Source: a virus. From it: DNA of 13,779 nucleotides. Position numbers and translations under genes: made by a program. The notes under the pieces were generated by a model. It saw only the letters and a list, made by a program, of their open reading frames with translations. It was not told the DNA's origin and made no database searches. The stretch covers positions 1 to 13,779 of IMG/VR virus record IMGVR_UViG_3300045988_103014; one strand, written 5' to 3'. Positions 7,145-12,916 of the stretch are shown here, piece after piece. Every line of letters starts with the position of its first letter. Within the stretch, counting starts at the first letter, position 1.

Positions 7145-8833
7145 ATGAAGCCGATGCAGATGATTGATAAAATTACTGAAACAGAAAAGAATATGTTTAT
7201 GAGATACCTCGAGAGCTATGCCTATTCTGGTGGTGACTGTGGCGAAATCAAGGCTACATTCGAGCATCTTCTTCGCTTCTGGAATGAGAATAAGGGAAGA
7301 TATTTAGGTCACATTTTCGGAAATCAGCTTATCCTTCAGAAGGAACTCTCTTATGAGAGAAGTAGAGCCGAGCTTGAGGACCAGTTAGATGAGAAGTTTT
7401 ACTCATATTCAGCAAGAGAAACTGCGCCTGGTCGTTTCTATCAGGACTATATCGAGTGGCGTAGCCAGTTCTATGACCGTGATAGCAACAACAGAGAAGT
7501 GTATTATGCTCTTGATGCTCTTATGAGCACAGATGCACTTATCAATAACAGATATGACGGAGAAACTGTGAGCTTTATGGGACCGAACGGTAAAGAAATC
7601 AAAATCCCTCACGGTTGTCGTGCCACTCGTATGATTGGTAAGATTGCTGAAGCCTACGGAATTAAGGGATTTGAAGATTTCCGTATTGCACACTCTATGG
7701 TGTTGAACCAGAAGATGTTAAAGGGTAATCTTTGCATCTCTATCCACCCTCTTGACTATGTAACTATGTCAGATAATGAGTGTGACTGGTCATCTTGTAT
7801 GTCTTGGAAAGAGGACGGTTGCTATCGTCAGGGAACTGTGGAGATGATGAACTCTCCTATGGTAGTAGTTGCATATCTTACTGCGGCTGACAATATGTGG
7901 ATGCCTGGTAACAACTCTTGGAATAACAAGAAGTGGAGAGAGCTTTATATCGTGAATGATGAAATCATCACTAACATTAAGGCTTATCCTTACTGCAACG
8001 AAGAGCTTACTAAAATCGTTATCAAGTGGTTAAAGGAGCTTGTAACTGCATCTGACCTTGGTTGGAAGTATGACGAGAACCCTACTGCTTGGCGTCACGA
8101 TGAGCAGGAATATGTAGAGCGTTTCAAGGAAAAGAGTATCCGTATCTATCCTGAAACTGAGTTTATGTACAACGACTTCGAGGCTAACTGCCAGCAGTGG
8201 TCATATATCGCAGAAGAGTTGTCTGGTGGTACACATTACATCAACTACTCTGGTCAGTGTGAGTGTATGGCGTGTGGTGCTGCAACTGGCAACTTCGACG
8301 GAGAAGGTCGTGTAGTATGTGAGGACTGTGAGGAAATCACATACTGTGATGATTGCGGCGACCGCATCTACGGTGGAGATGACACTTACTATGTGGACGG
8401 ACAGACTATCTGTGAGAGCTGCTATGATAATCATACCTTCGAGGATATGCTTACTGGCGAGGCTCATATGAAGTATAACGGATATGAGGTAGCGATTGCA
8501 CCTGATAAGGACGCACCTTTTGAGGGTTGCAAGTTGTTCTATGATAATGGCTGGAGAGACCGTGGAAATCGTGCGGTAACAGCCGAAGATAGAGGTCATA
8601 CTATCTATAAGGCAATGAGCAGACACATCTACTTCTATGACGAAACTATTGATGAAGCAATGGAGAGATATTCTACTGCAAAGAAACTTCATCAGGTTGA
8701 AGGTAGATATGAGAACCGTTGGATTATCTATTTGAGCGAGGTTACAGAGGAACTTGCAACAGACCTTGGCTACGAATCGCTTGAGGATATGAAGAAAGAG
8801 TTTTATGGCTCAGAGGAGATACTAATCTCCTAA
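7145..8833 (+). CDS. Large hypothetical protein (paralog A, 562 aa) with a conserved LCISIHPLD core and one C-terminal Cys-rich zinc-ribbon module
   Basis: It is homologous along its length to the 11525..12916 product (for example KGNLCISIHPLDYVTMSDNECDWSSC versus EGTLCLSVHPLDFLSTSENNHNWRSC, and NKKWRELY versus SKKWRVLF). The ribbon region reads C-E-C-MACG...VCEDC...YCDDCGDRIYGGDDTYYVDGQTICESC. The start may instead be the ATG at 7154. Confidence 0.8.
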   Translation: MKPMQMIDKITETEKNMFMRYLESYAYSGGDCGEIKATFEHLLRFWNENKGRYLGHIFGNQLILQKELSYERSRAELEDQLDEKFYSYSARETAPGRFYQDYIEWRSQFYDRDSNNREVYYALDALMSTDALINNRYDGETVSFMGPNGKEIKIPHGCRATRMIGKIAEAYGIKGFEDFRIAHSMVLNQKMLKGNLCISIHPLDYVTMSDNECDWSSCMSWKEDGCYRQGTVEMMNSPMVVVAYLTAADNMWMPGNNSWNNKKWRELYIVNDEIITNIKAYPYCNEELTKIVIKWLKELVTASDLGWKYDENPTAWRHDEQEYVERFKEKSIRIYPETEFMYNDFEANCQQWSYIAEELSGGTHYINYSGQCECMACGAATGNFDGEGRVVCEDCEEITYCDDCGDRIYGGDDTYYVDGQTICESCYDNHTFEDMLTGEAHMKYNGYEVAIAPDKDAPFEGCKLFYDNGWRDRGNRAVTAEDRGHTIYKAMSRHIYFYDETIDEAMERYSTAKKLHQVEGRYENRWIIYLSEVTEELATDLGYESLEDMKKEFYGSEEILIS

Positions 8834-8840
8834 GAGCCAC

Positions 8841-8855
8841 CCCCAAGCCTTGGGG
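8841..8855 (+). terminator. GC hairpin (CCCCAA-gcc-TTGGGG) upstream of promoter P6. It is a weak terminator: its U-tract is displaced into TTGATTTTTT about 15 nt downstream.
   Basis: Read from the sequence. Confidence 0.35.
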
Positions 8856-8870
8856 CGAAAAAATCTCAAA

Positions 8871-10474: not shown

Positions 10475-10506
10475 ATATTTAGAAATAAAAGAAAGGTGGG
10501 AAAGGT

Positions 10507-11532
10507 ATGCAGAACTTAAAAGTAGAAGATTATAAGCTGATGAAGACTTTAGTTGGCATGAGTCAAGAAGGTCTAAGACGCACTATGGCTACCTATCTCG
10601 AGAATAAGTATCCTAAGCTAATTCAAACAAAGGATTACTTATACGCAGAGGGCGATATTCCGATTGCTCTCGTTGCGCATCTCGACACAGTATTTGCTAA
10701 ACCAGCAAAAGATGTATTTTATGATAGAGAGCAGGGTGTAATGTGGAGTCCACAGGGTCTTGGAGCAGATGACCGTGCTGGAATATTTGCAATCATTAAA
10801 ATACTTCAGAGTAAGTATAGACCAACAGTTATTTTAACAACTGATGAAGAGAAGGGTTGTTTAGGTTCGGATAAGTTGGTTATTGACTTCCCTGAAGCAC
10901 CTTCAAAACTAAATTATATTATACAGTTGGACAGACGAGGAACTAATGACTGTGTATTTTATGACTGCGACAATGATGCGTTTGTAAAATATGTTGAACA
11001 GTTTGGTTTCATAGAAAATTTTGGTTCATTGTCTGATATTAGTGTAATATGTCCTGAGTGGGGTATGGCAGGAGTTAACCTTTCAGTAGGATATGAAGGA
11101 GAACATTCGGAGACGGAAATACTTCATGTTGGACCTTTGCTTGCGACTATTGAAAAAGTTAAGGTAATGTTATCTCAGCAGGATATCCCGGAATTTCAGT
11201 ACATTCCAAGTCAGTATAGCTGGTATTCAATGTGGAAGAAAGGTTACGGCGGAGCTGGTATATATAGTTATCCATTTGATGACGAGTATACTTGCTGCAA
11301 GTGTAAAAAGCAGTTAACTGAGTATGAAGTTATTCCAGTAGTTGATAAGAATGGAAAAGATGTATATTATTGTGGTGATTGTTGTATAGAGAACATCGAA
11401 TGGTGTGATTTATGTAAAGGCGGTTACGAAGCAACTGAAGAAGATAAGAAATCTAAGCGTCATTTTTGCCCGTCTTGTAAGTCTAAGTCTGCAAAGATAA
11501 AGGGTACAGGAGGCAAACGCAAGGATGTATAG
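10507..11532 (+). CDS. M42/M28-like metallo-aminopeptidase domain (clan MH) fused to a C-terminal Cys-rich zinc-ribbon tail
   Basis: Metal-ligand motifs appear in the clan MH order: LVAHLDTVF (H-x-D), GADDRAGIFAI, TTDEEKG (the Glu-Glu pair), then GYEGEHSE. The C-terminus reads YTCCKCKK...VYYCGDCC...WCDLCKG...HFCPSCKSK. The last 8 nt overlap the next gene. Confidence 0.8.
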   Translation: MQNLKVEDYKLMKTLVGMSQEGLRRTMATYLENKYPKLIQTKDYLYAEGDIPIALVAHLDTVFAKPAKDVFYDREQGVMWSPQGLGADDRAGIFAIIKILQSKYRPTVILTTDEEKGCLGSDKLVIDFPEAPSKLNYIIQLDRRGTNDCVFYDCDNDAFVKYVEQFGFIENFGSLSDISVICPEWGMAGVNLSVGYEGEHSETEILHVGPLLATIEKVKVMLSQQDIPEFQYIPSQYSWYSMWKKGYGGAGIYSYPFDDEYTCCKCKKQLTEYEVIPVVDKNGKDVYYCGDCCIENIEWCDLCKGGYEATEEDKKSKRHFCPSCKSKSAKIKGTGGKRKDV

Positions 11533-12916
11533 TGCAATTAAAGAAGACTTTATGAAGGTAGTGGAATACTCACAAGGTATTCCACAGCCTCATGTTGAGA
11601 AACTATTTGACGACTGGATGGAAGCCAAGAGGGACTTCATTGAAGCCTGGGGTGGAAAGCTCATATATGAGTGGCCGGAAAAAGTTTCATTTGAACTTGG
11701 TGCAAAAGAAAAAGAACTTCGATTAAAGGACTTCTGCACTATGGTTCGTAATACTTATGGTAATTCTGATTTAGCTGACTTTATTGAAGAAAACAAAGAT
11801 GGTTTCTTCTCTAATCAAGTGTTAGAAGATTATGATTATTGCGGCACTAAAGTTCCAAAAGGAATGAAGTTGCTGCGAGCATTTAAGTTTTTTGAAAGTA
11901 ATCAAAGCGCACTTGAAAACCTCCAGAATGCGGCGAGTATGATTATCCAAGAGGATAAAATTGAAGGCACCCTATGTTTATCAGTTCACCCTCTTGATTT
12001 CTTGAGTACAAGTGAAAATAATCATAATTGGAGAAGTTGTCATGCGCTGGATGGAGAATATAGAGCAGGAAATCTTAGTCATATGATTGATAAGGCAACG
12101 ATTATTTGTTACCTTAAATCCAATAGAGAAGAGGTTCTTCCAAATTTTCCAACAGAAGTAAAGTGGAACTCAAAGAAATGGAGAGTGCTATTTTATTTTT
12201 CTGAACAATGGGATATGGTGTTCGCGGGTCGCCAGTATCCGTTCACCACAGAGACTGGACTTGATTTTGTTAAGAATAAGGTCTTTCCAAAAGCTCAGTT
12301 GGGAGAGTTTTCACATTGGACAGATAAGAAGTACAGAGATTTCAAAGAGGGCGATATCGCTACTCATTTCAGTTTTTCATATGTTCCAGTAGTAGATGGA
12401 ATTTTGAAGCTTAATGAGTTGATGATTAACGAGCCAGGTTCTTTACAATTTAATGATGTGTTATCTTCAAGTTGTTATGATGCGCTATATGCATATAGAC
12501 AGCGTGAAGGTTTTGGCGGAATTATATCATATTATCCTTCAATTCATCATACACATTTCAAGATTGGCGGACGATGCACTTGCATGAGATGCGGCAAAGC
12601 CCCTATTGAAATCACAGAGTCGTTTATGTGTAATGATTGTGAATTGGAATATGGTGACAGTGACGACGATATGTTTGCATATTGCCCTTGCTGCGGAAGC
12701 CGATATTTCTATGATGATGGAATATGGGTAGAAGGGGCAGAGGAATGTGTATGTCCTAATTGCGCTGATTCACAAACTCTCGTTTGTGATTGTTGTGGTG
12801 AAAGATATTATAAAGATGACTTAGTTTACAGTAGAAAACATGACGCATATTATTGCGGCTGTTGTGCAGATGATATGGATAATATTCGAGAGAATTTGAA
12901 GGAGGATTTTGACTAA
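11525..12916 (+). CDS. Large hypothetical protein (paralog B, 463 aa) with an LCLSVHPLD core and three tandem zinc-ribbon modules
   Basis: Paralog of the 7145..8833 product. Ribbon modules: CTCMRCG...MCNDC; YCPCCGSRYFYDDGIWVEGAEECVCPNC; VCDCCGERYYKDDLVYSRKHDAYYCGCCA. Translationally coupled at both ends. Confidence 0.8.
   Translation: MYSAIKEDFMKVVEYSQGIPQPHVEKLFDDWMEAKRDFIEAWGGKLIYEWPEKVSFELGAKEKELRLKDFCTMVRNTYGNSDLADFIEENKDGFFSNQVLEDYDYCGTKVPKGMKLLRAFKFFESNQSALENLQNAASMIIQEDKIEGTLCLSVHPLDFLSTSENNHNWRSCHALDGEYRAGNLSHMIDKATIICYLKSNREEVLPNFPTEVKWNSKKWRVLFYFSEQWDMVFAGRQYPFTTETGLDFVKNKVFPKAQLGEFSHWTDKKYRDFKEGDIATHFSFSYVPVVDGILKLNELMINEPGSLQFNDVLSSSCYDALYAYRQREGFGGIISYYPSIHHTHFKIGGRCTCMRCGKAPIEITESFMCNDCELEYGDSDDDMFAYCPCCGSRYFYDDGIWVEGAEECVCPNCADSQTLVCDCCGERYYKDDLVYSRKHDAYYCGCCADDMDNIRENLKEDFD

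Follow-up and report, generated by a model that had tools for sequence, protein, structure and literature searches.

Among the described systems close to the genes studied here are two phage gene pairs, KP34p10/p11 and PhiM1_09/10, each listed as conserved in the papers on the KP34-like genus and on Phimunavirus and annotated as a hypothetical protein followed by a putative peptidase (PMC4411677, PMC6115819). In the Autographiviridae, this pair sits directly before the primase gene, and the study of Phimunavirus (phage CB5) defined the open reading frames (ORFs) before the primase as the early region. When we searched the literature for a function of KP34p10 and KP34p11, of the corresponding PHROG ids or of a phage M28 peptidase with a partner, we found only "hypothetical" and "putative peptidase" annotations. 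We analyzed a 13,779-nucleotide stretch (the window) from IMG/VR virus record IMGVR_UViG_3300045988_103014, part of a 193.9-kb phage contig, in which a plus-strand gene array carries two large paralogous proteins, here called A and B, and a peptidase gene that overlaps the start of B. A pair of the same kind, core protein plus peptidase, returns in unrelated phage lineages.

Core proteins and their peptidase partner across phage lineages

Paralog A (7145..8833, plus strand, 562 aa) and paralog B (11525..12916, plus strand, 463 aa) are both present at exactly the coordinates given in an earlier, sequence-only reading of this DNA, which had called them homologous. They are true paralogs, with 26% identity over ~348 residues (BLASTP E 2e-25). 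The patch LC[IL]S[IV]HPLD[YF]..[ST].S[DE]N...W.SC lies where that reading had placed it, as LCISIHPLDYVTMSDNECDWSSC in A (7730..7798, plus strand, aa 196-218) and as LCLSVHPLDFLSTSENNHNWRSC in B (11972..12040, plus strand, aa 150-172). It includes a Cys (Cys218 in A, Cys172 in B) that is invariant throughout the superfamily, and both proteins carry WN[NS]KKWR downstream of it. In a 40-sequence alignment covering both subfamilies, the residues S153, H155, P156, D158, S163, N165, W169, S171 and C172 (B numbering) were invariant, as were K217, K218, W219 and R220. A family hidden Markov model (HMM) detected no third copy in the window, A and B being its sole matches.

Between them, overlapping B, lies the peptidase gene (10507..11532, plus strand, 341 aa), whose product is of the MH-clan (M28/M42/M20-like) zinc type. 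It passed the Pfam Peptidase_M28 cut-off (24.0 bits against 21.3), also touched the M20, M42 and PepT-like models, and matched the phrog_4191 "peptidase" profile with an E value of 2e-30. The protein carries the MH-clan pattern H-x-D, D, E-E, D, H, and the residues concerned (H58, D60, D88, E114, E115, D142 and H200) are at least 95% conserved among 69 orthologs. Individual metal-binding and catalytic roles were assigned to these residues from what is known of the MH clan. Because they are conserved in the 69 orthologs, the peptidase looks catalytically competent. It thus resembles the M28 aminopeptidases, the M42 enzymes TET and FrvX and the M20 enzymes PepT, ArgE and DapE in residue pattern and M28 score, but differs from them in forming a phage-specific subfamily (phrog_34186), in bearing a tandem zinc-ribbon tail in Bacillota phages and in having an obligate-looking partner gene. 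The peptidase gene is translationally coupled to B, as had been proposed, through an 8-nt overlap, the peptidase stop codon (TAG, 11530-11532) lying beyond the B start at 11525.

Conserved gene order within one clade proves little by itself, and pairs that occur in otherwise unrelated genomes weigh more. The peptidase gene was directly 5' of B in 77 of 79 related IMG/VR loci, which come from gut Bacillota phages. In Enterococcus phage H1, with a genome of 138 kb, H1_5, H1_6 (the peptidase) and H1_7 are consecutive and the paralog H1_1 is nearby. H1_6 shares 35% identity with the window peptidase (E 2e-56), and the H1 core matches had E values of 6e-17, 1e-12 and 1e-11. The Enterococcus proteins (phrog_18912 and phrog_29713, in phages H1, EF1, EF5 and VRE9) are alike in core sequence (E 3e-15 and 1e-9 to phrog_18912; family HMM E 1e-11 to 3e-26), in occurring as several paralogs per genome, some of them ribbon bearing, and in flanking a peptidase homolog. 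They differ in that H1_5 lacks a ribbon, the peptidase has a single ribbon, and two of the three paralogs carry D or R in place of the HPLD His.

A further set of pairs comes from phages of Gram-negative hosts. In Klebsiella phage KpV41, the peptidase gene kpv41_11 begins before kpv41_10 (655 aa) has ended, and the same arrangement is found in Pectobacterium phage Lelidair (gp14/15), Dickeya phage BF25/12 (gp16/17) and Vibrio phage DE18, all Autographiviridae. The gene 3' of the core protein gene in Bradyrhizobium phage BDU-MI-1 encodes a peptidase (E 1e-11), and Cellulophaga phage Calle_1 has the two genes in reverse order, gp066 then gp065. We found no third gene common to these lineages. 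KP34p10/KpV41_10 (phrog_6980) and KP34p11 (phrog_4191), which occur in Drulisvirus, Phimunavirus, Stompvirus and Maculvirus, share several features with the core proteins and peptidase described here: the first is a large protein with an S-C-M motif, a conserved R, R-x-Y and PY-x-D, it ends in a C-terminal CxxC-G-R-Y-x-x-DD...CxxC ribbon, and its gene is directly 5' of, and overlaps, that of an M28-like peptidase before the primase gene. The differences are that the N-terminal half is unrelated and that the KP34p11-type peptidase lacks the ribbon tail. The core motifs common to both branches are S-C-M, an R on the next strand, R-x-Y and [YF]-x-D. A Foldseek search of BFVD returned a 659-aa protein of phage KpV48 (E 7e-6), presumably the ortholog of kpv41_10 judging by size and genus, together with two Dickeya phage JA29 proteins and Lactococcus phage P087 gp45. 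Weaker matches came from Shigella phage Buco, Vibrio phage DE17 and Pectobacterium phages CB5 and Nobby. The link to a peptidase is far stronger than could be seen from the sequence alone: the pair returns in unrelated phage lineages.

The reading had not recognized the core as a known family, and our searches agree. Neither A nor B rose above noise anywhere in Pfam or NCBIfam, and against PDB sequences nothing was matched except zinc fingers. Distant members of the family, searched in the same way, likewise gave no more than zinc-finger noise. The only match was to phrog_18912, a function-unknown PHROG (E 1.2e-9 for A and 2.8e-15 for B). The two proteins recovered 2329 and 2963 relatives, on contigs of up to ~200 kb, and no Pfam domain was found among these relatives. 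A profile search put the core family at 4984 clusters at 50% identity. Bacterial and archaeal genomes, when scanned, yielded no cellular homologs, only phage-sized contigs binned into metagenome-assembled genomes (MAGs), mostly of Clostridia. A and B are old duplicates within a very large uncharacterized phage superfamily. We found no description of the core family, its signature or the conserved pairing in the libraries and literature searched; the parts of known kind are the zinc ribbons, the MH peptidase and possibly a GNAT-like scaffold.

Several assignments were tried and rejected. DUF273 gave a single match to the core, from one member only and below the cut-off (E 0.007). Motif resemblances that were considered and then dropped were a thymidylate-synthase-like S..P.D...PCH, a pseudouridine-synthase HRLD..TSG, a papain-like or transglutaminase-like Cys-His arrangement, a PD-(D/E)xK nuclease, an ADP-ribosyltransferase and a PcfJ-like protein. 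A separate observation concerns the 150- to 176-kb contigs that carry the module and were deposited inside MAGs (L084-L115). Their MAG labels include Lachnospiraceae, Acutalibacteraceae, Mollicutes, Candidatus Nanosyncoccus and Muribaculaceae, among others. These contigs are most likely phage genomes that were wrongly binned, so the labels are unreliable for host assignment.

Predicted structure, invariant residues and zinc ribbons

AlphaFold2 (AF2) gave confident models for both paralogs, with mean predicted local distance difference test (pLDDT) scores of 90.0 for B and 89.8 for A, and neither model has a close solved relative. In both, the predicted architecture is a helical N-terminal region, an alpha/beta core and C-terminal Cys4 zinc ribbons. 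The superfamily as a whole has just four invariant residues, namely one Arg, one Tyr, the Asp of [YF]-x-D and the Cys of S-C-[MH]. The Arg lies on the long strand after the Cys, and the Tyr ends the next strand. Conserved H, D, C and W residues had been suggested to form a metal or active site. Of these, the His and Trp are not conserved: the His of HPLD (H155 in B) is one that varies in the Enterococcus paralogs, as described above, and relatives from Gram-negative and Cellulophaga phages have lost the Trp. The core models show a weak resemblance to proteins of the GNAT (Gcn5-related N-acetyltransferase) superfamily, whose topology is beta1-alpha1-alpha2-beta2-beta3-beta4-alpha3-beta5-alpha4-beta6(-beta7); reproduced across two models, this resemblance is one of fold and not of membership. 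No match to the Pfam Acetyltransf profiles was obtained for 14 members at E≤1, nor was any PDB GNAT sequence matched at E≤10.

The ribbons are at the C-terminal sites at which they had been claimed, but their number and kind needed revision. Paralog A has two Cys4 ribbons (8258..8428, plus strand, aa 372-428; C374/377-C392/395 and C401/404-C423/426), and the signature CG-R-[YI]-x-x-DD is seen only in the second. Nor does A end in ribbons, as had been stated, because an additional domain of ~135 residues comes after them (8432..8830, plus strand, aa 430-562). This A-specific alpha/beta domain gave no match among known structures. Paralog B has three ribbons (12575..12865, plus strand, aa 351-447), two of them of the RY..DD type. 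The Cys residues are invariant in the A/B alignment and, for the peptidase tail, in the 69 orthologs, and short strands are predicted between the knuckles, as expected for Cys4 zinc ribbons. Spacing is conserved, and the RY..DD signature returns in the distant relatives KpV41_10 (CCCCEGRYSIDD...VCDGC; hhalign E 1.8e-4) and P087 gp45 (CEECEEYFSKDD...YCGPC).

The tail of the peptidase (11293..11478, plus strand, aa 263-324) had been described as the same module. It is a tandem Cys4 ribbon pair in which all eight Cys are invariant among the 69 orthologs, and its layout, CxxC-x22-CxxC-x7-CxxC-x17-CxxC, compares with CxxC-x19-CxxC-x7-CxxC-x19-CxxC in B. An hhalign comparison of the tail with B ribbons 2-3 gave a probability of 96%, an E value of 2.6e-9 and a score of 44.1; none of 120 column-shuffled controls reached that score (mean 16, top 42.0). 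No G-x-R-[YF]-x-x-DD signature is present in the tail, which a single-ribbon HMM misses at E<1. The tandem layout, including the 7-residue linker, thus holds for the tail, but the RY..DD signature does not, and the two are probably homologous modules of the same kind that differ in signature. Among B orthologs, the number of ribbons ranges from one to three, and so ribbons 2-3 are accessory; the peptidase tail is constant, and the ribbons therefore do not covary.

The tandem ribbons differ from the double zinc fingers of LIM and FYVE domains in having Cys at all eight ligand positions and linkers of 5 to 14 residues instead of 2. They do not follow the LIM pattern CX2CX16-23HX2C-X2-CX2CX16-21CX2(C/H/D), since the fingers are all-Cys with linkers of 5, 7 or 14. 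The family-specific G-x-R-[YF]-x-x-DD signature sets them apart from LIM, FYVE and generic Cys4 ribbons alike. Pfam LIM was matched by 1 of 14 members (E 0.002), and the PDB entry for CRP2 was matched at E 1e-4; we graded both as zinc-finger noise. P087 gp45 (L125 4179-5141) is a short superfamily member of 320 aa with an S-C-H motif and two nearly contiguous RY/YF..DD ribbons.

Possible functions of the pair

The core protein and the peptidase probably form a widespread early-infection module, because unrelated phages, with Gram-positive as well as Gram-negative hosts, carry the same pair. The reading that we favor, tentatively and with somewhat less than even confidence, is that of a two-protein early module made of an enzyme-like core and a catalytically intact zinc peptidase, with the ribbons serving for targeting. 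The core would be an enzyme with GNAT-like topology in which the canonical acyl-coenzyme A (acyl-CoA) site is unused, a suggestion drawn from its invariant polar constellation on a GNAT-like scaffold. Early in infection it might act on a host target or metabolite that bears an amine or amide, and the peptidase would carry out an adjacent hydrolytic step, either trimming or deacylating. The ribbons would bring the core protein and the peptidase onto the same macromolecular target. We infer the enzymatic activity, the early timing and the role of the ribbons, and the common binding target and anti-defence role proposed in the sequence-only reading are likewise conjectural. A search with PADLOC defence and counter-defence profiles (E≤0.1) gave no match for A, B, the peptidase, the neighboring genes or the Enterococcus paralogs.

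Several observations weigh against this proposal. Enzymatic activity has so far been demonstrated for no family member. The GNAT pyrophosphate loop, Q/R-x-x-G-x-G/A between beta4 and alpha3, is absent, and its place is taken by (R/K)-x-Y-P-[FY]-x-x, in which YP is invariant and there is no Gly-rich motif. The variation of the B ribbons beside a fixed peptidase tail argues against strict ribbon-to-ribbon pairing. The partnership itself has exceptions: Bacillus phage Nate has a peptidase and no large neighboring partner, the peptidase gp23 and gp45 of Lactococcus phage P087 are ~9.5 kb apart, locus L077 has a full-length three-ribbon B and no peptidase, and locus L078 has no detectable peptidase 5' of a B match that stops after residue 254. 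Finally, a core-to-core hhalign comparison of the Bacillota-phage branch with the Gram-negative branch was not significant (E 0.13). For this reason the extension to Gram-negative and Cellulophaga phages, which rests on Foldseek, the ribbon signatures, short motifs and the same neighboring gene, is well supported but not proven.

The same observations can be read in other ways. We consider it unlikely, although it is the strongest of the alternatives, that A and B are noncatalytic adaptors or regulators that recognize host proteins or nucleic acid through the ribbons and a conserved surface and that hand targets to the peptidase or gate it, leaving the peptidase as the sole enzyme. The conserved pairing and the translational coupling would fit such a role, and several paralogs per genome (A and B here; H1_1, H1_5 and H1_7 in phage H1) would fit alternative specificity subunits. 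However, a single polar set (Cys, Arg, Tyr and Asp) is invariant across otherwise dissimilar lineages, which looks more like an active site than a variable recognition surface, and a full-length B is kept in L077 where the peptidase is missing. The habits of the MH clan also speak against adaptors: its peptidases are mostly exopeptidases or deacylases, and adaptor use is not known among them. Somewhat less probable again is that A and B act enzymatically on nucleic acid (tRNA or other RNA, or DNA) to modify or process it, with the ribbons binding nucleic acid and the peptidase removing an aminoacyl, acyl or peptidyl group; one version would be a CoA-independent GNAT-like transferase that uses aminoacyl-tRNA. 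Enzymes of the Fem and L/F-transferase type have a GNAT-like topology and lack the CoA loop, and the core too combines such a topology with the absence of that loop and carries tandem zinc ribbons. Genes for RNA-related functions are also close by: at least 20 tRNA genes and a sigma factor downstream here, tRNA, transfer-messenger RNA and RtcB genes in Calle_1, an RNA ligase gene in P087, and in the window a phosphoesterase that partly matches a PHROG annotated as RNA ligase. Yet the module is equally core in 43-kb podoviruses, where the stretches examined hold no tRNA genes, and proximity to tRNA genes may merely mirror the layout of the early region.

That the ribbons are generic and the adjacency is nothing but synteny inherited within one phage clade strikes us as improbable. 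Synteny in the ~160- to 200-kb clade could indeed be inherited, and the failure of the single-ribbon HMM to find the peptidase tail and the lack of ribbon covariation would suit this explanation. Against it stand the adjacency in the 138-kb Enterococcus phages, in four Autographiviridae genera and in the Bradyrhizobium and Cellulophaga phages, with differing gene order and no common third gene, and the tandem-ribbon alignment, whose score of 44 (E 2.6e-9) compares with a shuffle mean of 16. We give very little credence to A and B being virion or structural proteins, an idea raised by the GenBank product name of the 711-aa homolog in Vibrio phage DE18, "putative structural protein". The Autographiviridae genes precede that for DNA primase, in the author-defined early region; in the present contig the genes are set within a sigma-70 promoter array, with genes for a sigma factor and tRNAs alongside; and the KP34 paper names eight structural-protein genes and KP34p11 only as a putative peptidase.

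A bolder version of the two-protein enzymatic module can be framed, which we regard as doubtful. The S-C-M core would be an unrecognized CoA-independent enzyme superfamily, its GNAT-like scaffold reorganized about a Cys/Arg/Tyr/Asp center, that together with a dedicated MH-clan peptidase performs a new covalent remodeling of a host macromolecule during takeover and is shared by phages of Bacillota, Proteobacteria and Bacteroidota. Example reactions would be aminoacyl or peptidyl transfer onto trimmed protein N termini or a reaction on aminoacyl-tRNA, and the module would reach therapeutic KP34-like Klebsiella phages. Whatever its chemistry, the family counts its diverged members in the thousands but is absent from curated domain libraries, and well-studied phage genera conserve it, among them the KP34-like phages that are used against Klebsiella. 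Joining scattered PHROGs into one superfamily through a constant peptidase partner and a four-residue invariant center makes a single, testable two-gene module out of many anonymous early genes, and the KP34-like and Enterococcus phages offer tractable systems in which to search for its target.

Promoters, neighboring genes and possible recoding in relatives

The placement of these genes in an array of promoter cassettes was borne out, as their transcription units lie within a series of strong, near-identical sigma-70-type promoter cassettes. Eight such plus-strand cassettes of ~50 nt precede transcription units and read TTGATTTTT..ATAAAAAA..TGTTATTAT and then atatatgtaagataaag, that is, a −35 element TTGATT, an A/T-rich 17-nt spacer and an extended −10 element TGnTAT(T/A)AT, followed by atatatgtaagataaag. 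They lie at 2263-2291, 3239-3267, 4648-4676, 6128-6156, 7074-7102, 8871-8899 and 10446-10474, with a variant at 9605-9633. The cassette before A spans 7074..7120 (TTGATT-N17-TGTTATTAT and then atatatgtaagataaag), and the one at 10446..10474 serves the unit made up of the peptidase gene, B and the ORF that begins at 12916. Downstream of the window are a full-length sigma-70 family gene (L001 12250-13158) and then at least 20 tRNA genes (L001 13897-21369), a stretch in which the gene caller predicted almost no proteins.

The gene order A, 150-aa gene, 263-aa gene, peptidase gene, B, 105-aa gene holds in 77 of the 79 related IMG/VR loci. The 150-aa gene (8986..9438, plus strand), which has a weak helix-turn-helix-like match, is syntenic and in most relatives separates A from the peptidase block. 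After it and before the next promoter is the strongest terminator-like hairpin of the window (9470..9503, plus strand), with a 13-bp stem containing 9 G-C pairs. The syntenic 263-aa gene (9658..10449, plus strand) has no assigned function, and searches of its product against families and the PDB gave no match. It lies 5' of the peptidase gene in the 77 peptidase-bearing loci and directly 5' of B in L077 and L078. Its product has four invariant C-terminal Cys (C227, C231, C237 and C240) and an invariant GxxGxWxRPE patch. The stop codon of B overlaps the ATG of the 105-aa gene (12916..13233, plus strand) as TAATG, and this gene is syntenic in 76 of the 79 relatives.

In-frame TAG codons occur in about 45 of the 79 related loci, within orthologs of A, B, the 263-aa gene and the 105-aa gene that otherwise align well. 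Examples are L058 (6043 and 7282), L064 (6019 and 6682), L042 and L082 (both 6037), L067-L074 (6388) and L013-L023 (4250). Because these codons sit in well-aligned orthologs and, in B, are usually aligned with Gln, they suggest amber recoding of TAG to Gln in the relatives. No suppressor tRNA was seen in the stretches of these relatives that were examined. In the phage of the window, TAG is a true stop codon (11530-11532). In L048, a lone in-frame TGA at 4600 falls exactly on the Trp that is invariant in the 263-aa gene (KEWPGDL); it may reflect a sequencing error, a pseudogene or recoding of TGA to Trp.

No near-identical DNA to the window was found among GenBank phages. Two further early genes, at 2318-2839 and 5284-6075, encode respectively a SprT-like zinc metalloprotease, which carries a C-terminal CxxC...CxxC ribbon of its own, and a NinI-like phosphoesterase of the calcineurin type. 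The PHROG annotated as RNA ligase that the phosphoesterase partly matches is phrog_8238. The coding strand switches between the minus-strand genes at 1091-1945, which include one for a DUF6291-family protein, and the plus-strand array from 2318 onward. Divergent promoter-like sites lie at 2182-2210 (minus strand) and 2263-2291 (plus strand), and the sign of the GC skew flips near position 2000.

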